From: an uncultured Candidatus Rokubacteria bacterium
GTDB taxonomy: Bacteria > Methylomirabilota > Methylomirabilia > Rokubacteriales > CSP1-6
Assembly: GCA_963721815.1 (NCBI GenBank)
Contig: CAVRLO010000015.1
Location: 76,163-140,162 of the forward strand
DNA length: 64,000 bases
Direction of reading: 5' to 3'
This document shows, one piece after another, positions 35,964-62,016 of this stretch (position 1 is its first letter; each line of letters opens with the position of its first letter). The position numbers and the translations under genes were made by a program. The notes under the pieces are model-generated. The model searched no databases and was not told the DNA's origin. It was given only the letters and a program-made list of their open reading frames with translations.

Positions 35964-36286
35964 GCCCAGCCTCCTTGGCTGCCGTCATCGTAGTCCAGAC
36001 GGTGTCCAGGGAAACCGGGTCCGATTTACTGTGGTCATCTGGCGTGATGGTCGTACTGCCTGGGTGCCGGCTCGGGAGCTAGGCGCGAAGGCTCAACGCA
36101 AGACTGCACGAAAGGGAACGCGCTCCCGCAAGCGCGGACGCTGACCGGCTCGGTTCGCTGAGAGCTCGAAACTTCGCGCCCAATGCGGCTTCCTGCGGCC
36201 GGATCCGGTGGGCGTCGGCGATCTCGCAGCCGCGGATTCGGGTGGAACGGCCTGTTGGATCGGACCCGTGCCCGCCAGGACCAGCC

Positions 36287-49826: not shown

Positions 49827-52800
49827 ACGATCGGGCTCGGGCGTCTGAGGAGCCTTGCGCCTCTTCCGCCGTTCGTGCAAACTCTCCAGCAGCACATAGA
49901 ACACCGGCACGAACGGAATCGCCAGGAGCGTCGAGGCAAGCATGCCGCCGAACACCACCGTGCCGATGGCCTGCTGACTGGCAGCGCCTGCCCCGGAGGC
50001 CACCATCAGCGGGACCACACCCAGAATGAAGGCGAACGAGGTCATCACGATGGGGCGGAATCGGCGCCTGGTCGCTTCGACGGCCGCCTCCGTGATGGAC
50101 ATACCCTCCCGGTGCAGGTCCCGAGCGAACTCCACGATGAGGATGGCGTTCTTGCTCGCGAGCGCGATCATCAAGACCAGACCGACCTGAGTGAACAGGT
50201 TGTTGTCGTAGCCGCGGCTCATGAGCGCCAGGAGCACTCCGACCAGGGCGATGGGGACGACGAAGATGACCGCGGCGGGAGACGTCCAGCTCTCGTACAG
50301 GGCGGCCAGCACCAGGTACACGAGGGCGAGGGAGAGGGCGTAGATCAAGTAGGCCTGGTAGCCGACCTTCTTCTCCTGATAGCTCGTCGAGGTCCAGTCG
50401 TACGACATGCCCTCCGGCAATGTCTGGGCGGCCAGCTGTTCCATGAGAGTCAGGGCCTGTCCGGAGCTGAACCCCGGCGCGGCGGAGCCGAAGATGGCCG
50501 CCGCCGGGTAGAGGTTGTAGCGGGTGACCAGCTCGGTGCCCTGGACGCGCTTGACCTGGATCAGCGTGTTCAGCGGGACCATCGCCCCGTTCTGGTTGCG
50601 GACGTACAGATGTCTCAGATCGTCGGGCTCGAGACGGTAGCGGCTGTCGGCCTGGATGTAGACCTGGAAGACCTGGTTGAAGCTGTTGAAGAAGTTGACG
50701 AACGACGAGCCCAGATAGGATTGGAGCGCCTCGAACACGCTCGCGGGCTGGACCTGCAGCGACTCCGCCTTGGTCCGGTCGATGTCCAGGTAGAGCTGAG
50801 GGCTGCGATAACTAAAAGTGGTCGCGAGGCCTCGCAGGCTCGGATTGGAATTTGCCGCCTGCACGAGCTCGCCGGCGTTCCGCTGTAGCTCGGCCAGGCC
50901 CAGGCTTCGGCGGTCCTCCACCATCATCTGGAAGCCGCCCGTCTGGCCCAGGCCGCGGATCGGCGGCGGAATGGCGACGAAGAGAAAGGCTTCCTGGATG
51001 TCGCTCAGCTGGCGGTTGAGGTCGGCGACGATCCGGTCCTGGCTCAGGGCCTTGCCGCGTTCCTTCCAGCCCTTGTACACGACGAACGTCGCCGAATAGT
51101 TCGGCACGTTCGCGAAATCCAGAACCGAAAGGCCGCCGATGGTCACCCAGGCATCGACGCCCTCGGTTCGCCGGAGGATGGCGTTGACCTTTTCGGCGAC
51201 CTCGCGCGATCTGGGCTGCGATGAGCCTTCCGGCAAGACGGTCACGATGATCGCGTAGCCCTGGTCCTCGGTCGGGAGGAAGCCGGTGGGCTGGCGTAGG
51301 AATCCCCAGGCGGTCACGGCCACGATGACGACGAACACGATGGACATGAGCGCGGGCCGCTTCACCATCCGGCTGACGACTCCCACGTAGAAGTCGGTGC
51401 TCTTCTGAAACGCCCGGTTGAAACCTCGATAGAACACGTTGGGTGGTTTGTTGCCGCGAGGTCTCAACCACATCGCGCACTGGACCGGCTTCAAGGTCAG
51501 CGCGTTGAGGGCGCTGATGACGGCGGTCGCGGCGATGACGAGCGCGAACTGGCGGAAGATCTGACCGGTGATGCCCGGCAGGAACGCGGCCGGCAGAAAG
51601 ACGGCGACGAGGGCCAGCGTGATCCCGACGACCGGTCCCGTCAGCTCCTGCATGGCCTTGATCGTGGCGTCCTTGGGAGACATCCCGGTGTCGATATAGT
51701 GGGCGCTGTTCTCCACGATGATGATCGCGTCGTCCACGACGATGCCGATGGCCAGGATCAGCGCGAACAAGGTCATCAGGTTCACGGTGAAGCCCAGCAT
51801 GGCCATGGCGATGAACGCGCCGATGATCGTGACCGGTACGGTCGTCGCCGGCACCAGCATCGCCCGCAAGTTTTGCAGGAAGACCAGGATGACGATCAGC
51901 ACCAGCACGCCGGCGATGAACAGGGTCTCGTAGACGGCGCGGATCGCCTCGCGGACGAACAGGGTGGTGTCGTAGCGGATCGCGTACTTCATGCCCTCGG
52001 GGAACTGCTTGCTCATGTCGGCCATGGCCGCGTAAACGAGATTGGCGACCTGAATGGCGTTGGCGCCCGGCAGGGCGAACATCACGATCTGCGCCGACTT
52101 GTGCCCGCTGAATCTCGAAAAATTGCTGAAGCTCTGCTGGCTCAGGTCCACTCGGGCGACGTCGCGCAGTCGCACCACTTGTGGCGCCGTGCCGGTCGCG
52201 TTCTTGACGATGATGTCCTCGAACTGGCTTGCGTTGGAAAGCCGGCCGAGGGCGTTGATCGTGAACTGAAAGGGTTGAGCGTCCGGCACCGGGGGGGCGC
52301 CGAGCCGGCCGGCCACGACCTGGACGTTCTGGCCCTGGATGGCGCTCAGCACATCGGCGGTCGTGATCCCGAAGCTCTGGAGCCTTTTCGGATCGAGCCA
52401 GACCCTCATGCTGTAGGGACCGGCCCCGAAGATTCTCACCTGGCCGACTCCCTGGATCCGGGCTAGCGGGTTCTGCAGATTGATGAGCGCGTAATTCGAG
52501 AGAAAGATCTCCTCGAACCGGTCGTCGTCGGAGTAGAGGCTGGCGACCAGCAGAATGTTCGGCGAGACCTTTCGCACGTTGACGCCCTGCGCTTGAGCGC
52601 CGCCCGGAAGCTGGGACACCGCGCCGTTGGCGAGGTTCTGGACCAGGGCCAGCGACGTGTCGAGCTCCGTCCCGACGTCGAACGTGACGGTCAGGGTGTA
52701 TGTGCCGTCACTCGAGCTGACGGACGACATGTAGATCGAGCCTTCGACGCCGTTGATCGCTTGCTCGAGCGGCTGCCCGACCGTCGCCGCGACGACCTCG

Positions 52801-52964
52801 GCACTCGCCCCGGGGTAGGACGAGGTCACCTGGATGGTCGGCGGGACGATCTCGGGATACTGGGCGACGGGCAAGATGTACAGGCACACGGCCCCGATGA
52901 TGACGGTGATGAGCGCGATGACGTTGGCGAAGATGGGCCGTTCGATGAAGAACGCGGAGATCAT
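49806..52964 (-). CDS. RND efflux permease (HAE1)
   Basis: 'FFIERPIFANVIA', 'AIGIVVDDAIIIVEN', 'KNAILIVEFA', 'RFRPIVMTS'. Confidence 0.95.
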   Translation of the reverse strand: MISAFFIERPIFANVIALITVIIGAVCLYILPVAQYPEIVPPTIQVTSSYPGASAEVVAATVGQPLEQAINGVEGSIYMSSVSSSDGTYTLTVTFDVGTELDTSLALVQNLANGAVSQLPGGAQAQGVNVRKVSPNILLVASLYSDDDRFEEIFLSNYALINLQNPLARIQGVGQVRIFGAGPYSMRVWLDPKRLQSFGITTADVLSAIQGQNVQVVAGRLGAPPVPDAQPFQFTINALGRLSNASQFEDIIVKNATGTAPQVVRLRDVARVDLSQQSFSNFSRFSGHKSAQIVMFALPGANAIQVANLVYAAMADMSKQFPEGMKYAIRYDTTLFVREAIRAVYETLFIAGVLVLIVILVFLQNLRAMLVPATTVPVTIIGAFIAMAMLGFTVNLMTLFALILAIGIVVDDAIIIVENSAHYIDTGMSPKDATIKAMQELTGPVVGITLALVAVFLPAAFLPGITGQIFRQFALVIAATAVISALNALTLKPVQCAMWLRPRGNKPPNVFYRGFNRAFQKSTDFYVGVVSRMVKRPALMSIVFVVIVAVTAWGFLRQPTGFLPTEDQGYAIIVTVLPEGSSQPRSREVAEKVNAILRRTEGVDAWVTIGGLSVLDFANVPNYSATFVVYKGWKERGKALSQDRIVADLNRQLSDIQEAFLFVAIPPPIRGLGQTGGFQMMVEDRRSLGLAELQRNAGELVQAANSNPSLRGLATTFSYRSPQLYLDIDRTKAESLQVQPASVFEALQSYLGSSFVNFFNSFNQVFQVYIQADSRYRLEPDDLRHLYVRNQNGAMVPLNTLIQVKRVQGTELVTRYNLYPAAAIFGSAAPGFSSGQALTLMEQLAAQTLPEGMSYDWTSTSYQEKKVGYQAYLIYALSLALVYLVLAALYESWTSPAAVIFVVPIALVGVLLALMSRGYDNNLFTQVGLVLMIALASKNAILIVEFARDLHREGMSITEAAVEATRRRFRPIVMTSFAFILGVVPLMVASGAGAASQQAIGTVVFGGMLASTLLAIPFVPVFYVLLESLHERRKRRKAPQTPEPDRSASSLG

Positions 52965-54123
52965 TGCCCGGCTTTGCCGGGGGCGGGGGCGTGTCGCCTT
53001 CACGCTGCGGCGTGACTTGTCGTCCGGGCGCGGCTCTCAGCAGACCGTTGACGACCACCGATTCCTTCCCCGTGAGACCGTCGTCGATGGCGCGCAGGGC
53101 ATCCACGGCGGAGCCGGTCTTGACGCCGCGGCGCTCCACGACGTTCTTCTCGTTCACCACCAGGACAAAAGCGCCCTGTTGGTCGTTGCCGACCGCTACC
53201 TCGGGCACCAGCAATGACGCTTTCTGCCCGAGCGGCACTCGCACCCGTGCATACAACCCCGGGAGAATCCGTCCGTCCTTATTCGGGAGGATGCCCCGCA
53301 TGAGCAGGCTCCCGGTGGTGGTCGTCAGGCTGATGGCGGCAAAGTCGAGGTGCCCCTGATGGGGGTAGCCGTCCTCACCGGGCAGGCCGGCCTGCACCGA
53401 CCACGTCCGCGAATCCGCCGCCCCAGGGATCCCGCCCGCGCGCCTGCGCAGGCGGGCCAGGTCATAGTCGCTGATGTTGAAGTAGACGTAGATCGGGTCG
53501 ATCTGGTTGATCGAGGCCAGGACGGTGTTTCCGCCTGACCCGACCAGGTTGCCGGGATCGACCTGCCTTCGGTCCATTCGCCCGTCGAACGGAGCCGCGA
53601 CCAGCGTGTAATCGAGATTGAGCTTCGCCAGGTCTCGCTGCGCCTCCGCCGACTTCAGGTTGGCCTGCGCCAGATCACGCTGGTAGCGCCAGTTGTCGAG
53701 ATCGGACTGTGTCCCCGCGTTGTGCTGAATCAAGTTCGTGAAGCGAACGAATTGGGATTCGGCGAACAGAAGCTGCGCCCGGAACTGCGAGATGGCGGCT
53801 TCGGCTTGCCGCAAGTTGTCCTCGTACGTGTTGCGCTGGATGACGAAGAGCGGCTGGCCTTTCTTGACGATTTGCCCGTCCTGGAACAGCACCTGCTCGA
53901 GATATCCCGCGACGCGGGCGACGAGCTGCACGGTGTAGATGGCCTGCGTGTTCCCGGTGAGCTCCAGATAGTCGGTCACCGTCCGCTGCTGCGGCTGGGC
54001 GACCGTCACCTTCGGGGGAGGCGGCGGCTGAGGCTTCGGTGTGTCTTTGCAGCCCGCCAGGAGCGCGGCGAGCGCGGATATCGTGATCCAGCCCGAGATG
54101 CGTGCGGTTCCGCGAAGGGTCAA
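52961..54123 (-). CDS. RND periplasmic adaptor (MFP)
   Basis: Lipobox LAGC; 'ARVAGYL', 'APFDG', 'PEVAVGNDQQG'. Confidence 0.85.
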
Positions 54124-55723: not shown

Positions 55724-55938
55724 GCTCGCGCACTCGATCTCGAAGTCAGGAAACTGAGCTCGGGGAAGACCCGAGCGTCAACGGGAGCACCCGATGCGCC
55801 CGATGCGCTCACGATACACCTGGCGTGAACCCCCCGGTCCTTTCAGCCCGATCAGGGATGGCCCGGGTTGCGCAGCGTGGACGGTGCGCGCACAATCGCA
55901 CGCGTCGTTGATGGACCCCTCGCCGTCAGGAGGAGAAG

Positions 55939-56853
55939 ATGCCGTACAGAATCTCGCGACTCGGCACGGTGGAGATTCGTAGCCTCGACCTCGACCGCGA
56001 TCTCGATTACTACGTCAATGTCCTGGGGCTGCAGTTGACGGCCCGCGAGGGGCGAACCGCGTACCTCAAAGGCTGGGACGAGCGGCACGCGTACTCGGTG
56101 ATGCTGACCGGAGCGGACCAGGCGGGAATGGCTCGAATGGCGTTTCGGACCGTCGATCCCGAGGACCTCGACTACTACGAGAACCGGCTGCGGAAGTTCA
56201 GTGTCAAGTACGACGTGATCCCGGAAGATTATCGCCGCGGCCGCGCTCTGCGCTTCACCGCGCCGTCGGGCCATGTCGTCGAGCTCTACAACGAGATGGA
56301 TTACACGGGTAACCTGTTGCCGACCGTCAATCCCGCTCCGTGGCCGGAGGGCCTCAAAGGGATCGCGCCTCCCCGTCTGGATCACACGCTCGTGACCGCG
56401 CCCGACCCCCCCAAGGCCATCCAGTTCTTCCAGGAAGTGCTCGAGTTCCGCGTGAGCGAGATGCTCGTCAACCCCGAGGGCGTGCCGGTGGCGGCATGGC
56501 TCTGGCAACGGCCCGCGCCCCACGACATTGCGATCGTGCCGGGTCGAGCTGGGGGATTTCACCATGCCGCCTTCACCGTGGATTCCGCCGAAGCGCTCTT
56601 CCGCGCGGCGGACATCCTGACGATGCACAAGGCCCGCATCGACTATGGGCCCGGCCGCCATGGGATCACGCGGGGCACGACGATCTACTTCTTCGATCCG
56701 TCCGGCAACCGCCTCGAGGCGTTTGGCGGCTACACGGCCTACCAGATGGATCCGGACTGCCGGGCGATCAAGTGGACGACGGACCAGATCGGACCAGCCG
56801 TCTTCTACTACTCCCAGGAGCTGAACGAGACCTTCCTGAGCGTCTACACATGA
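55939..56853 (+). CDS. xylE: Catechol 2,3-dioxygenase (type I extradiol dioxygenase)
   Basis: 'RLDH', 'PHDIA', 'FHHAAF', 'GPGRHGITRG.TIYFFDPSGNRLE'; GGAGG RBS. Confidence 0.85.
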   Translation: MPYRISRLGTVEIRSLDLDRDLDYYVNVLGLQLTAREGRTAYLKGWDERHAYSVMLTGADQAGMARMAFRTVDPEDLDYYENRLRKFSVKYDVIPEDYRRGRALRFTAPSGHVVELYNEMDYTGNLLPTVNPAPWPEGLKGIAPPRLDHTLVTAPDPPKAIQFFQEVLEFRVSEMLVNPEGVPVAAWLWQRPAPHDIAIVPGRAGGFHHAAFTVDSAEALFRAADILTMHKARIDYGPGRHGITRGTTIYFFDPSGNRLEAFGGYTAYQMDPDCRAIKWTTDQIGPAVFYYSQELNETFLSVYT

Positions 56854-56856
56854 GCC

Positions 56857-57231
56857 GTGGTCGCTGACTGTAGCTACACGGTCCGCTTTAGCCCGCTTGG
56901 CGACACCGTGGCCTGTCGAGATGGAGAGACCGTTTTAGCCGCGATCATGCGGTCCGGGGCCAAGGTTATGTTCGGCTGCCGCGGTGGTGGTTGTGGCACC
57001 TGCAAGATGCGTCTGATCTCGGGCCGTGTGGACCACGGCCGCTGCTCGGCGGCGGTTCTGCCGGAGACGGAGAAGAGAGAAGGCTCGTTCCTGTCCTGTC
57101 AGGCACGGCCCCTCACCGATCTTGTTGTCGAGCTGACTGAGACGAACCGGTACCGCAAGCCGTCCGTCCCGTGGCTGGTAGCGCATCCGCCCGGAAGCCG
57201 TTATCCTCTCCGCGAGGGGGAAACGCGATGA
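56857..57231 (+). CDS. xylT: Plant-type 2Fe-2S ferredoxin, XylT-like
   Basis: 'GCRGGGCGTCK...LSCQARP'; directly after the extradiol dioxygenase. Confidence 0.75.
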   Translation: MVADCSYTVRFSPLGDTVACRDGETVLAAIMRSGAKVMFGCRGGGCGTCKMRLISGRVDHGRCSAAVLPETEKREGSFLSCQARPLTDLVVELTETNRYRKPSVPWLVAHPPGSRYPLREGETR

Positions 57232-58160
57232 TGAAGATGACGATCGAGCCGGTGTCCGCCTTCAGTAGCCTCGACGTGCTGGTGGCCATGGAGGAAGGTC
57301 TGTTCAGCGCCGAGGGGCTCGATCTCCGGATGGCGTCGCGCGAGTCCCGCGACATCCGCTCCACCGCGGAAGGGACCCTGTCGAGCCCGGTGACGAATCA
57401 GGGACGGCTTCACGAACGAGGCGAAGCCACGATGTTCCAGGGGTGAGAGTGCGGCAATAACCGCCGGGTGGCGGAAAGCCGAGTGGGTTCGCTTCAGATC
57501 GGACGTCGGTCGATGATCGTCTGTGCTGCCCTCGTCGTTCCTCCCGACTCGAGTGTCTACGTGCCTCAGGAGCTGGCGAACCGGAAGGTGGGGCTGGATT
57601 ACGGCAACGGTACCGCCTACGCCGGGCTCCAGATGCTCGAGGGCGCCGTGCCGCGGGAAGCCATCACGACCTGCGCGGCCGTTACCCATCCGGGCGAGCG
57701 GTACGCGGCCATGATGAGGGGCGAGTTCGACGCGACGGTATTGCAGGAGCCATGGATCACAGTGGCCGAGAAGGCCGGCTGCCGTCTGGTCTCGACCACG
57801 TTCTTCCACGGCACGTGGGTCGGCGGCCCCGACCTCGATCCCGCGCTCTACGCCGCATTCCTCCGCGGCGTCATCCGGGCGGTCCGTCGCATCAAGGCCG
57901 ACAAGCGGCGGTACGTGTCGTACTTCAAGGAAGGCTGGGCCGCGGGGGACCCCGCGGTCCAGGCGCTGACGCCCGACGACTTCAATCTCGGGCGCATCCA
58001 GCTCAGGGAGCCGACCCCGATTCCGGAGGACGAGGCGCGCTGGGCCTGGGAGTGGATGGCGAGCTGGGGCGTGCTCCACGGAACGTTTGACGCCACCGCC
58101 CAGATCAATCGCAAGGTCGAGCGAGAGGCGCACGAGCTGGCGTTCGCCGCGCTCTCATGA
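57228..58160 (+). CDS. NitT/TauT-type ABC substrate-binding protein with in-frame TGA (candidate selenoprotein, 310 aa)
   Basis: ORFs 57171-57446 and 57468-58160 share one frame; TGA 57444-57446 is codon 73; 'ELANRKVG', 'GEFDATVLQEPWITVAEKAG'. Confidence 0.75.
57447..57481 (+). promoter_or_regulatory. Bacterial SECIS-like stem-loop
   Basis: CGGC-AATAA-CCGCC-GGGT-GGCGG-AAA-GCCG; apical loop starts 19 nt after the UGA. Confidence 0.65.
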
Positions 58161-58162
58161 CC

Positions 58163-58560
58163 TCAGGTGTCGCGCCGGAGGCGGCGTAGCAGCGCGGTCG
58201 GGGCGCAGTGATCGTGGCCCTCGCGGGCAGGCGCGCGCGCCGTTCGTGGTAGTACACGGTATCGAAGGCGCCGATGGCGCCTTGCAGGGCAAGGAGCCAC
58301 AGGGCCGTTGCGATCACGCCCAGATCCCGACGCGGACGTGTGAGCCTTGTCCGTCGACGCAGGCCTCTCGGGCCTCGACCCTGGGAGCGATCCACCGCGG
58401 GAGTGGAATGCGCAGCCGGCCGACCCGCGGCCGGGGTGAAACTCGAACCTACCGGTGGCCACGTCATCTGTCAGGTGTAGCGAGCGGATCGCCGGGTGCA
58501 GGTCGAGCCACGCGGGACCTAGCAGCCGGGGATACAGAGCGGCGGGAGGGTGATCCATCC
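58163..58560 (-). pseudogene. Fused remnants (DUF4166-like N-terminus and a membrane-protein N-terminus)
   Basis: 'LYPRLLGPAWLDLHPAIRSLH' and 'LWLLALQGAIGAFDTVYYHE' in different frames. Confidence 0.4.
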
Positions 58561-58619
58561 TCCGCCTACGATGGTTGGGCATTCCGCGGTCCGTCGCCGA
58601 AAATAGCGACGTGACCGGC

Positions 58620-59082
58620 ATGACGGCGATGCTCGCGCTCGGGCTCGTTGCGCTGACAGTTCCCGCTTTGCTCATCAACCTTTACTTCGCGTCGCTGATG
58701 CTAGGCCGGTGGCCCCGGCTCCGTCACCGCCTGGGCGTGCTGTTCACGACCTGCGGCGCGGACACGTCGTCTTGTGCCGTCGTGGTGCGGACGCCCTATG
58801 CCCGGCTGTTCGGTGGAGCACCAAACGTCCACGTCGGTATCGTCTGGAACCTGGCGTTGCTTGGTCTCGCGCTCTCGTGGATGCTGACCGGTCGGCTGGC
58901 GGTGCCATGGCCCTACTTGATCGTGGCGGGTGCGAGCGTGCTGGTCGGGCTTTACCTCGTCCGGGCCCTCGTCGTCGAGCTCAGACAGCCGTGCCCGCTC
59001 TGAATCGCTGGTCACGCCCTGCACGCGGCGGTCGCCGCACTGCTTGGAATCGTGTGGCCCCGGCGCGCGCTTCTCACGGGTG
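58620..59082 (+). CDS. Vitamin K epoxide reductase (VKOR) family protein with C-P-L-UGA motif (candidate selenoprotein); 3' end uncertain
   Basis: Loop Cys pair 'CGADTSSC..V.TPYARLFG', TM helices, 'QPCPL*IAGHALHAAVAALLGIVW'. Confidence 0.7.
59021..59043 (+). promoter_or_regulatory. Bacterial SECIS-like stem-loop
   Basis: GCA-C-GCGGC-GGTC-GCCGC-AC-TGC; apical loop starts 26 nt after the UGA. Confidence 0.55.
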
Positions 59083-59222
59083 AGAAGGCGAGGAGCTTGG
59101 GGGCGGACACCGCGGCACGCGGGGCGGGGGGCCGCACGCAAACCTTTTGGGGATTGAGCCCGAAGTCCCGCATTCTAGACATGACGCCATTTCAGACCCG
59201 GGACTCGAAGACGGAGATGTCC

Positions 59223-59750
59223 ATGTGGGATCTCGGCAACGTATTCACTGCGGCGCGGAAAGAGACCGTCACCGCGGAATATCTGGGCCGGCGCCTCGCG
59301 GACGAGGTCTGGAGGGACGTCCGTTCGCCGAAGGATCCACTCCCGACGACGTACGTGGCCTGGGAGTGGCTCATCATTCGAGCGTTCGTCGCGAGCCGCG
59401 CGGTCCACGCGCTCCTCGAAAGGAACGTCGTCGATCGGAACGTGGTCGATCGCACGGTCCGCGCCATGCAGGCCCGCCTCTGTCATCCCGCGCACTTCAA
59501 AACTCGGCATGCGCTGACGGCGTTCCGCGCGGTCGCCGAGCTGCGCTACCAGGAGTACCTGAACGCGTTCGACGTCTGGCGCACGCAAAAGGACGACGAC
59601 CAGCTGACGCGCGCGCTGGCGAGCCACGCCCTGACCGAGAACGCCGACTCCAAGGAAGTGCTCGATCTCTTCAGTCGCTTCGCCGCGTGCCTGCGGAAAC
59701 ACAACGAGGGACTCCGGATCAACCTGCACTTCAAGTTCAACGTGCGTTAG
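59223..59750 (+). CDS. Hypothetical helical protein
   Basis: GGAG RBS before ATG 59223; host-like codon usage. Confidence 0.5.
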   Translation: MWDLGNVFTAARKETVTAEYLGRRLADEVWRDVRSPKDPLPTTYVAWEWLIIRAFVASRAVHALLERNVVDRNVVDRTVRAMQARLCHPAHFKTRHALTAFRAVAELRYQEYLNAFDVWRTQKDDDQLTRALASHALTENADSKEVLDLFSRFAACLRKHNEGLRINLHFKFNVR

Positions 59751-60232
59751 CCTGAACCACCCCTTGCGAACACGCCTACGATCGATCCGTATGCGAGATG
59801 CGCCAGGATGGTCACCGTCGGCGTCGCGCGGCCGTAATTGAGCAGCAAGAAGCCGGGGGACTCCAGGAGCGGTGCGGAATCAGCGGCACTCATCGACGTT
59901 CCCATTCTCGGATGGACCAAAGGCAGGAGCAGGTTGACGAGCGTCGTGCCCGCGAACAGCGCATGGAGGAGGCCGAACACGGCCCCGAGCGCCCAGCCCG
60001 AACGACCCAGCGCCAGGAACGCCGCGTAGTAGGCGAGCGAGAAGAGGAGCCCGAAGACGAAGTGCAAGGCGTAGCCGACGACCCTCGCGCGCGAGCGGTC
60101 ATCGGTCCACGCGGTCCCGAGAAGGAAGGGGATGTCCATGCGAGTCAGACGCAGGTGATTGGCTCCGGCCAGCGTGATGGTCAGTACGAGGGTTCCCACG
60201 AAGCCCCCCGCCAGGGCGCTCCAGACGCTCAC
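59747..60232 (-). CDS. Membrane protein, 4 TM
   Basis: Hydrophobic helices; overlaps the GH15 stop. Confidence 0.65.
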   Translation of the reverse strand: MSVWSALAGGFVGTLVLTITLAGANHLRLTRMDIPFLLGTAWTDDRSRARVVGYALHFVFGLLFSLAYYAAFLALGRSGWALGAVFGLLHALFAGTTLVNLLLPLVHPRMGTSMSAADSAPLLESPGFLLLNYGRATPTVTILAHLAYGSIVGVFARGGSG

Positions 60233-62016
60233 TGGGAAGCCATCGCCATCGCGGCGCTGATCAGTGCGAGGTGGACGAGCCCTTGCGGAAAATTACCCAG
60301 GAAGTCGTGCGTCTCTGGTGCGATTTCTTCGGCGTACAGGCCGAGGTCGTTGGCGAGCCGGAGAAGATCCTCGAACAAGGCCTTCGCCTCGTCTCGCCGG
60401 CCGACGATGGCCAGAGCCTCCGCGAGCCAGAATGCGCAGCAGACGAACGCCCCCTCTTTGCCGGCGATTCCGTCGTCTCCCGTATATCGGTACAGCAACG
60501 GCCCCGAAGCCAGCTCCCGCCGAACCGCTTCGACCGTGCTCCGCAGCCGAGGGGATTCTGGAGAGTCATACCGCATGATCGCCATGAGCAGCAGGCTGGC
60601 ATCCAGCTCTTTGCTTCCGGCGTACCAGACGTAGCTGTTCTTCGCCTCGGACCAACAGTGGTCGTCGATGAAGCGACGAATATTCGCCGCCTCGTTGGCC
60701 CAGCGATCTGTGCGTCGGCCCGGAAGCCATCGCATGTGGGCCATTCGCACCGCGCGATCGAGCGCGACCCAGCACATGGCTTTGGACTGAGTGTGATGGC
60801 GAGGGTCAGCCCGGACTTCCCAGATCCCAGAGTCAGGCTCGCGCCAGTGCCGGCACACGAAATCCGCGATGCTGGCGAGGTCGTGAGCCGTGTCACGGCC
60901 GAGATGATGACCCGCTGTCGCGTACACGAAGGCGGCGTCGAGCAGCTCACCATACACGTCCAGCTGAAGCTGCCCCGCCGCTCCGTTGCCAATCCGAACG
61001 GGGCGGGAGCCACGATACCCATCGAGCGCCAGCGTCCGCTCTGCGGCGTCCGCCCCTCCGTCGAGGCGATACAACACCCGTAGGCGAGGCAGCGTGAGTC
61101 TCGTCGCGTGCATGAACCACCAGAAGAACGCCGTGGCCTCAACCTGCTTCCCCAGCTGGAGCAAGGCTTCGAGCGTGAACGACGAGTCGCGGATCCACGA
61201 GTATCGGTAATCCCAGTTCCGTTCGCCGCCGATCGCCTCGGGCAGCGACGTCGTGGGGGCCGCCGCAATGGCGCCTGAGGGCGCGAACACCAGCAGCTTC
61301 AGCGCCAGCGCGCTACGCACCACGGCGTCTCTCCAGGGTCCGGTGTAGGTGAGGTCGGCCGCCCATCTTCGCCAGAATTCGACGGTGGCATCCGCGCGAG
61401 CCTCCGCCTGGGCGCGACCCGGGAAGACGAGTGGCTCGGCGTGAGCCGTGACCATTGCGATGGTGGCGCGGCCGCCTTCGCGGATCTCGAAGTCCGCCCC
61501 CATGCCCGCCACGTCGCACTGCACCGATCCCGCGTCCCATGCGCATATGGCCAGGGCGTCGCTTCCGCTCGTGGCCACCGGGTACGGTCGCCGCGATTCC
61601 AGCCGCATCGGCGTCGAGCCGTAGCCGAAGCGCGGCTCGACACGCCAGCTCATAGGGACATACCCGGAGAGGCCCTCCAGGCGCCGGACCAGCTCGCGAG
61701 CCGGGCTCAGAGCACGCCCAGGCAAGGTCATGGCGTCTGTTACCCTGACCACGCCCGTCGAGGTGGTGAATGTCGTCTCCAGCACGTTGGTGTCCGGCAG
61801 GTAGCGGCGGCGCGTCTCGTGAGCCTGTCGAGGACGGAGGGTGAAGTGCCCACCGCGCTTGGCGTCGAGGATGGCGGCCAACACGCTCGGTGAGTCGAGG
61901 TCCGGAAGGCAGAGCCAGTCGATCGACCCGTCCAGCGCGACCAATGCAACGGTGCGACCGTCGCCGATCGCCGCGTACTCGCGAAGCGGGGGGTAGGCGG
62001 GCCTTCGATCCAGCAT
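60229..62016 (-). CDS. Glycoside hydrolase family 15 (glucoamylase/trehalase-like)
   Basis: 'YAAIGDGRT', 'APTTSLPE..GGERNWDYRYSWIRD', 'QLDVYGE', 'GLYAEE', 'NFPQGLVH'. Confidence 0.92.
   Translation of the reverse strand: MLDRRPAYPPLREYAAIGDGRTVALVALDGSIDWLCLPDLDSPSVLAAILDAKRGGHFTLRPRQAHETRRRYLPDTNVLETTFTTSTGVVRVTDAMTLPGRALSPARELVRRLEGLSGYVPMSWRVEPRFGYGSTPMRLESRRPYPVATSGSDALAICAWDAGSVQCDVAGMGADFEIREGGRATIAMVTAHAEPLVFPGRAQAEARADATVEFWRRWAADLTYTGPWRDAVVRSALALKLLVFAPSGAIAAAPTTSLPEAIGGERNWDYRYSWIRDSSFTLEALLQLGKQVEATAFFWWFMHATRLTLPRLRVLYRLDGGADAAERTLALDGYRGSRPVRIGNGAAGQLQLDVYGELLDAAFVYATAGHHLGRDTAHDLASIADFVCRHWREPDSGIWEVRADPRHHTQSKAMCWVALDRAVRMAHMRWLPGRRTDRWANEAANIRRFIDDHCWSEAKNSYVWYAGSKELDASLLLMAIMRYDSPESPRLRSTVEAVRRELASGPLLYRYTGDDGIAGKEGAFVCCAFWLAEALAIVGRRDEAKALFEDLLRLANDLGLYAEEIAPETHDFLGNFPQGLVHLALISAAMAMASQ

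Follow-up and report, generated by a model that had tools for sequence, protein, structure and literature searches.

The VKOR gene and its in-frame UGA

The window, i.e. the whole 64,000-nt stretch of DNA analysed here, derives from an uncultured Candidatus Rokubacteria bacterium (assembly GCA_963721815.1, contig CAVRLO010000015.1); the assembly comprises 31 contigs and 7.0 Mb and is rated 66% complete. On the plus strand we identified a gene of the VKOR family that is interrupted by an in-frame TGA and lies between what remains of a degraded, divergently transcribed DUF4166 gene (58163–58562, minus strand) and a separate 177-aa gene without assigned function (59217–59750, plus strand). Codons 1–127 of the VKOR gene (58620–59000, plus strand) encode a first transmembrane (TM) helix, a periplasmic loop with Cys45 and Cys52, TM helices 2 and 3, and the active-site residues C-P-L; homologues start at the same Met or Val. 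Translated from the ATG at 58620, the frame reads CGADTSSC at residues 45–52, followed by TPYARLFG and then LRQPCPL, and is ended by the TGA at 59001–59003 (plus strand) in the run CCG TGC CCG CTC TGA. Past this codon the same frame continues with IAGHALHAAVAALLGIVW (codons 129–146, 59004–59057, plus strand), the putative fourth TM helix, and stays open until a stop at 59748–59750. If the UGA is read as selenocysteine (Sec), the sequence around residue 128 becomes ...LRQPCPLU-IAGHALHAAVAALLGIVWW. The read-through protein scored 40.6 bits against the VKOR profile PF07884, compared to 35.2 bits for the product stopped at the TGA (cut-off 27.5 bits), and its match covers profile positions 3–131 of 134, on both sides of the TGA. 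The original prediction had described a VKOR-like membrane protein with a loop Cys pair and TPYARLFG, an ORF that stops at the second Cys of the catalytic CxxC, and a last TM helix following in frame; all three were found as described, and the tail is conserved in relatives. NCBIfam contains no model for the VKOR protein or for its 177-aa neighbour, and the NCBI record for one 127-aa product reads 'hypothetical protein'.

VKORs are membrane enzymes in which electrons pass from a periplasmic dithiol protein to a loop Cys pair, then to an active-site CxxC and finally to a quinone, and in the established VKOR/DsbB mechanism it is the second Cys of the CxxC that engages the quinone. AlphaFold2 modelled the read-through protein with a pLDDT of 96.4 and a pTM of 0.89 as a complete VKOR core, i.e. 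a four-helix bundle with the loop half-helix (helices 2–28, 32–44, 50–55, 69–90, 97–120, and 126–145, the last described as made entirely of post-UGA residues). The best 14 Foldseek matches in the PDB were all VKORs (probability 1.00, query-normalised TM-score 0.53–0.71). In an alignment of 36 read-through proteins, C45, C52, T58, R62, G66, P68, N69, C125, P126, L127, position 128, and H132 are invariant. A profile of these 36 proteins placed C-P-L-U onto C-I-V-C and C-V-I-C of the solved human VKOR and pufferfish VKOR-like structures (PDB 6wv3/6wv9), so that residue 128 corresponds to human Cys135, and the loop pair C45/C52 aligned to the C43/C51 region of human VKOR. The CxxC at the start of helix 4 has an invariant first Cys, C125, and a second position that is UGA within the clade and Cys in distant homologues; a complete motif here needs Sec decoding. 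In a six-frame search this gene was the sole VKOR-family match in the 66% complete assembly, and DsbB was likewise not found in it.

Conservation of the UGA, the tail and the hairpin

A protein search retrieved 311 matches. The best 120 of these 311 have 75–94% identity, and almost all of them are exactly 127 aa long and end in ...PCPL. At the DNA level, TGA occupies the equivalent codon in all of about 100 related loci that were read, which span 37–94% identity and derive from Rokubacteria/Methylomirabilota, two Acidobacteriota MAGs, and soil metagenomes. A six-frame search recovered an orthologue from 10 of 251 genomes of the phylum (10 species-level genomes), each with a single TGA inside the match and an alignment that runs on to query residue 145–147. 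All scored metagenome and genome loci (82/82) have the TGA, a conserved tail of 21–23 aa with the consensus IAGHALHAAVAALLGIVWWVA, and a real stop. The same arrangement was read by hand in four further loci, including one in a Vicinamibacteria MAG at 62% identity, and in an Acidobacteria MAG at 73% identity. An exhaustive search of 1.84 billion representatives added ten 50%-identity clusters that end at the same column (37–77% identity), together with about 100 clusters of full-length 'short VKORs' of 140–150 aa, in which C-P-L-C or C-R-L-C is followed by x-x-x-H-x-x-N/H. DNA of seven loci from six of the divergent clusters (37–57% identity) had the TGA, an in-frame tail of 17–20 residues, and a stop in every case. 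Across all loci examined the tail thus extends for 17–23 codons, and distant homologues have CPLC, CRLC, CPYC, or CSWC at the UGA column. The check proposed with the original prediction, a search of relatives for UGA/Cys pairs at this column, therefore returned both members of the pair.

Gene callers and NCBI annotate 127-aa products, as would be correct if the UGA were a true stop and the family consisted of three-helix, 127-aa VKOR relatives with one active-site Cys and 21 untranslated codons behind it. The tail does not behave like untranslated DNA. None of 72 unique orthologous coding sequences has a premature stop in it, and with the hairpin (see below) excluded its variability by codon position is 0.38/0.45/0.92 bits, compared to 0.36/0.25/0.83 bits in the gene body. 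This conservation at the protein level with synonymous, third-position variation is the pattern expected of coding sequence, from which we infer that the tail is translated. It also matches helix 4 in alignments with the Cys forms and with solved VKORs, and a confident four-helix model depends on it. Neither TAA nor TAG takes the place of TGA at the codon itself in any of about 100 loci, while the real terminator behind the tail varies among TGA, TAG, and TAA. A role of the hairpin as a transcription or translation signal is conceivable, and its folding energy is unremarkable; even so, we find a true stop at this position scarcely credible.

Some variants of the family were also encountered. 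P0065 is a 149-aa protein with Arg at the Sec position (C-P-L-R), four loci (L056, L059, L061, L114) have S-C-L-L-U in place of P-C-P-L-U, and genome G103 contains a frameshifted copy (L026/L034/L124).

Downstream of the TGA lies a SECIS-like hairpin, C-GCGGC-[GGUC]-GCCGC-A (59024–59039, plus strand), formed by GCGGC at 59025–59029, the loop GGTC at 59030–59033, and GCCGC at 59034–59038. It begins 21 nt past the TGA, and 26 nt separate the A of the TGA from the first loop G. This hairpin and its spacing are as originally predicted. The stem is short, with 5–6 bp plus an imperfect extension, and its outer pair is a C·A mismatch in the window and C-G in most relatives. Its folding energy was not better than that of shuffled GC-rich sequence (z = 0.34) and an Rfam scan of 56000–60500 with E up to 10 gave no match, with no general bacterial SECIS model of Rfam scoring there; since the energy is unremarkable, the case for the hairpin rests on comparative evidence. 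Among 44 conserved fourfold-degenerate codons in the 72 unique orthologues, only codons 136–139 (GCG GCG GTC GCC) are invariant, and by our own calculation four invariant codons out of 44 would lie side by side by chance with a probability of about 3e-4. In 24 diverse sequences, 98.6% of cells pair, with compensatory changes at two pairs and also G-U wobbles. The compensatory changes are C-G to U-A, at the loop-closing pair in L141 and at the outer pair in L089; most pairs never vary, and the covariation thus rests on single sequences. The divergent locus L137 (38% identity) has a different hairpin of 7 bp with the loop UGGCAGC in the same place. Two loci of Cys forms complete the comparison: in L144, which encodes P0148, the site is TGC and N-A-A-V-A-A is kept, with a synonymous change of GCG to GCC that turns the GGUC loop into CGUC, and in L146 the hairpin is absent. 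Judged by these comparisons, the hairpin is under selection as RNA and conserved beyond protein-coding need. We take its position and G-rich four-base loop to fit the bacterial SECIS consensus and the GGUC loop of the E. coli fdhF SECIS, which also lies shortly after its UGA and in which G and U of the GGUC-type apical loop are contacted by SelB. Compared with the fdhF element, the window hairpin has a shorter stem, a loop at 26 nt instead of about 18, and no evident bulged U.

A phylogenetic tree built from 114 representatives groups 10 of the 11 Sec clusters into a single clade (support 100/95), inside which one Cys form, P0148, is also placed. The remaining Sec cluster, P0215, is found elsewhere among Cys forms, from which we infer at least two Cys/Sec switches; because the alignment is short, the tree is only moderately resolved.

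The assembly encodes the components of Sec decoding, each above the curated cut-off. SelB (363 bits, C20:56353–58236), SelA (589 bits, C20:58278–59633), and tRNA-Sec (69.8 bits, C20:61008–61101) are clustered within 5 kb (C20:56353–61101), and SelD is encoded on another contig (G000 C31:86322–87259) by a gene with an in-frame TGA, which makes SelD itself a likely selenoprotein. As tRNA-Sec is present in 196 of 251 genomes of the phylum, its presence is necessary but not discriminating, and co-occurrence is uninformative. Two of the outcomes named as refuting the original prediction are relatives that all have Cys and no conserved hairpin, and a genome without SelB or tRNA-Sec. Neither was observed: relatives carry TGA and conserve the hairpin, and SelA, SelB, SelD, and tRNA-Sec are all encoded.

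No experiment separates Sec insertion from other kinds of read-through, and read-through stimulated by a downstream hairpin occurs in other systems. The UGA could thus be read without selenium, by a near-cognate Trp or Cys tRNA or under a reassigned code, which would place Trp, Cys, or Gly at residue 128. Reassignment of TGA is contradicted by the same genes, which end in ordinary TGA stops 21 codons later. Furthermore, residue 128 falls in the catalytic Cys column, where Cys and Sec typically replace one another, the genome encodes the complete Sec machinery, and the hairpin combines the expected SECIS position with a G-rich loop, of which a G is lost where the codon is TGC. On these grounds we regard selenium-free decoding as highly improbable and favour insertion of Sec.

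The lost stop codon and the surrounding locus

At 59057 the homology between the window and every relative breaks off. L127 and L128, two metagenome contigs independent of each other, match window positions 58905–60339 with about 99% identity outside gaps and carry 41 additional nt (TCGGTCGCGTGACCCTGTTAGCCTGAACCACCCCTTGGTCG) between 59057 and 59058, consisting of the codons for S-V-A, a TGA stop, and 29 nt of spacer. The window therefore has a 41-nt deletion (junction 59057/59058), by which the VKOR gene lost its final three codons together with its stop, and by chance the VKOR frame now joins the spacer and the next gene. The former intergenic spacer (59058–59216, plus strand), which lies past the VKOR stop in L127 and L128, is translated in frame behind the VKOR core as PRRALLTGEKARS... 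and is followed by the 177-aa gene. Gene callers start the latter at 59217; the downstream frame from the ATG at 59181 gives a 189-aa translation that contains it. The 177-aa gene has stand-alone homologues of 166–187 aa without Pfam match and is called as a gene of its own on five other contigs. In the loci examined, the 189-aa translation is found beside no other VKOR orthologue, and an exact look-up of the 232-aa ORF at 59052–59747 had no match. The 177-aa gene shares the VKOR frame only through the deletion.

The original prediction had cautioned that no in-frame stop follows until 59750 and that either an indel is involved or the protein is fused to the next ORF. The missing stop, the involvement of an indel, and the frame running into the next ORF all stand; the indel itself is not a small frameshift but the 41-nt deletion. 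Neither a small frameshift nor a chimeric join at 59057, both suspected initially, explains the missing stop, since L127 and L128 reveal the deletion instead. The related contig L126 is error-prone, and the end of the gene was not settled from it.

A 21-nt repeat, GTTAGCCTGAACCACCCCTTG, at 59746–59766 is the 3' end of a minus-strand DUF6789 gene. L127 and L128 have a second copy just past the VKOR stop, inside the 41 nt absent from the window, so that in these two contigs the 177-aa gene block is bounded by a 21-nt direct repeat duplicating the 3' end of the DUF6789 gene. This arrangement suggests that the block was inserted with duplication of its target. In L130 and L131, the upstream context of the homologues of the 177-aa gene is different. 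Elsewhere in the genome, no repeat or mobile-element boundary was found to match 59058–59800.

The sequence upstream of the VKOR gene also differs among relatives. Colinearity in blastn with L038, L044, and others is broken at the DUF4166 remnant, which lacks about 250 nt internally relative to L038 and L044 and whose ORF in the window has no Pfam match. L044 has an intact DUF4166 gene and, between it and the VKOR gene, an SDR/DUF1731 gene that is absent from the window. Within the remnant, in a part conserved in relatives, ARAGORN called an 88-nt 'tRNA-Ile(GAT)' at 58244–58331; Rfam found no tRNA in 56000–60500 even at E up to 10, and the call is probably a false positive. Relative to window positions 55863–59057, the 1.9-kb contig L055 has about 50 nt between an extradiol dioxygenase gene and the VKOR gene downstream of it; in the window another 1.7 kb (56917–58604) separates the two, with a ferredoxin, a split binding protein, and the DUF4166 remnant. 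L126, an indel-rich 46-kb ENA contig compared with window positions 36157–59057, has RND efflux genes (49838–54119 in the window) directly 3' of the VKOR gene and a DUF222-HNH/UvrD block upstream. There are large rearrangements between these close relatives. The sibling L129 lacks 58393 to about 59066, and 58392 is joined directly to the last VKOR codons, so that the whole gene is gone. In the loci compared, we found no conserved redox partner beside the VKOR gene; neighbours differ and include DUF4166/SDR, GST, AMP-binding enzyme, and PEMT-like genes.

The split binding protein is a second candidate Sec gene (57228–58160), encoding an NMT1-like substrate-binding protein that is divided by a TGA at 57444–57446 (G-U-E-C). 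Its hairpin, CCGCC-GGGT-GGCGG at 57461–57474, lies 14 nt past the TGA and had been used for comparison in the original prediction; it exists as described there. Pfam support for this gene (NMT1_2) is weak, and a sibling contig has the same split with calls of 72 aa and 215 aa.

The deletion in the window, the loss of the gene from L129, and the degraded DUF4166 gene show plainly that the VKOR locus is unstable in the source population. Of 251 genomes of the phylum, no more than 10 contain an orthologue; the gene is therefore accessory, and its patchy presence and absence from L129 indicate that it is dispensable. The window copy, which has no stop and a degraded neighbour, may be on its way to loss, or an assembly fault may account for the 41-nt gap. 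It is possible that the window copy is a decaying or non-functional allele, or that the gap is artefactual and the true genome has a normal stop: the sibling contigs L127 and L128 have the 41 nt, the DUF4166 neighbour is degraded, L129 is without the whole gene, and the region is rearrangement-rich compared with L126. We hold this to be less likely than not, since codons 1–146, up to the junction, are intact and differ little from their counterparts in L127 and L128, and a clean loss of 41 nt is atypical of consensus error. Moreover, the VKOR core is complete including helix 4, and a C-terminal cytoplasmic extension therefore need not destroy its function. If the deletion is real, the product of the window copy would have 376 aa, composed of the VKOR core, 53 residues of former spacer, and the 177-aa protein.

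Proposed Sec decoding and comparison with known systems

With considerable confidence we interpret the gene as encoding a four-helix VKOR in which UGA-128 is decoded as Sec by hairpin-recruited SelB and which has suffered a 41-nt stop-loss in the window. In the proposed mechanism, Sec would replace the second active-site Cys to give C-P-L-U in a short four-helix VKOR. SelB with Sec-tRNA(Sec), recruited by the GC hairpin with its GGUC loop 21 nt downstream, would decode the UGA at 59001, and translation would continue through the last membrane helix, whose coding sequence would itself contain the hairpin. Normal copies would end 21 residues past Sec (...GIVW-S/W-V-A-stop) at a length of about 148 aa. 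From homology to human Cys135 we infer that Sec is the quinone-reacting residue, which would place selenium at the electron-exit step. The originally predicted Sec-using VKOR oxidoreductase is supported in this form by the conserved UGA, tail, and hairpin and by the Sec machinery, while its function is inferred. Support for selenium incorporation and for translation past the UGA is comparative and there is no direct evidence of either; Sec insertion, a role of selenium in quinone chemistry, dithiol-oxidising activity, and the fate of the fused product are all inferences.

A full-text literature search retrieved no paper in which bacterial VKOR is linked with selenocysteine. The 2026 prokaryotic selenoproteome review and the deep-Sep paper mention none of VKOR, vitamin K, and DsbB, nor does the main text of the BSepDB paper, which lists 111 families; absence from these 111 is shown for the main text alone. 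Both the enzyme family and the type of recoding are known; it is their combination that is uncatalogued in the literature searched, and the window copy adds only a strain-level lesion. We judge it probable that VKOR-type quinone reductases are an uncatalogued selenoprotein family, present in at least Methylomirabilota/Rokubacteria and Acidobacteriota in soils, with selenium at the quinone-attacking residue, the SECIS in a TM-helix coding segment, and at least two Cys/Sec switches in the short-VKOR clade. Because every gene caller cuts the family at 127 aa, and the NCBI record noted above calls it hypothetical, annotation pipelines and selenoprotein catalogues miss it. The stop-loss in the window illustrates that the 'missing end' of a selenoprotein gene can be a strain-level lesion and not an annotation problem.

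If the interpretation is true, selenium would be used in a membrane enzyme that passes the electrons of disulfide formation to quinones, and precisely at its quinone-reacting residue. This raises the question of what Sec contributes to quinone chemistry, be it rate, use of low-potential menaquinone, or resistance to over-oxidation, and of how a SECIS coexists with the coding constraints of a TM helix; the Cys forms of the same clade are natural controls. A membrane-embedded, quinone-reactive selenol enzyme would have a chemistry not described for any selenoprotein we know of, and to our knowledge soluble proteins of the thioredoxin fold make up almost all of the bacterial CxxU selenoproteins described so far.

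The four-helix core is common to the bacterial VKOR homologues (PF07884; Synechococcus VKOR, PDB 3KP9/4NV2/4NV5/4NV6) and the vertebrate VKOR/VKORL (PDB 6WV3–6WVI). The window family resembles VKOR/VKORL in its loop Cys pair (Cx6C here), the conserved Thr/Ser-x-x-A-R-x-F-G segment that follows, and a redox motif where helix 4 begins. Unlike known VKORs, it has UGA for the second Cys and a length of about 148 aa, without a fifth helix or a fused thioredoxin-like domain, and no DsbA-like or Trx-like gene is conserved beside it. The Cys-type short VKORs of about 140–150 aa (P0144, P0146, P0148, P0150) have the same length and architecture and C-P-L-C / x-x-x-H-x-x-N/H, but TGC or TGT instead of TGA, and where checked the hairpin is absent (L146) or has lost a loop G (L144). 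Bacterial thiol-oxidoreductase-like selenoproteins with CxxU or UxxC include DsbA-like, Trx-/Prx-/Grx-like, AhpD-like, and other families (PMC13188914). The putative Sec-VKOR is similar to these in having Sec for one Cys of the redox CxxC, Cys homologues, a SECIS in the coding sequence just after the UGA, and decoding via SelA, SelB, SelD, and tRNA-Sec. Those families are soluble and mostly of the thioredoxin fold, whereas Sec-VKOR would be a polytopic membrane quinone reductase with Sec at a membrane-embedded quinone site and its SECIS within the segment that encodes a TM helix.
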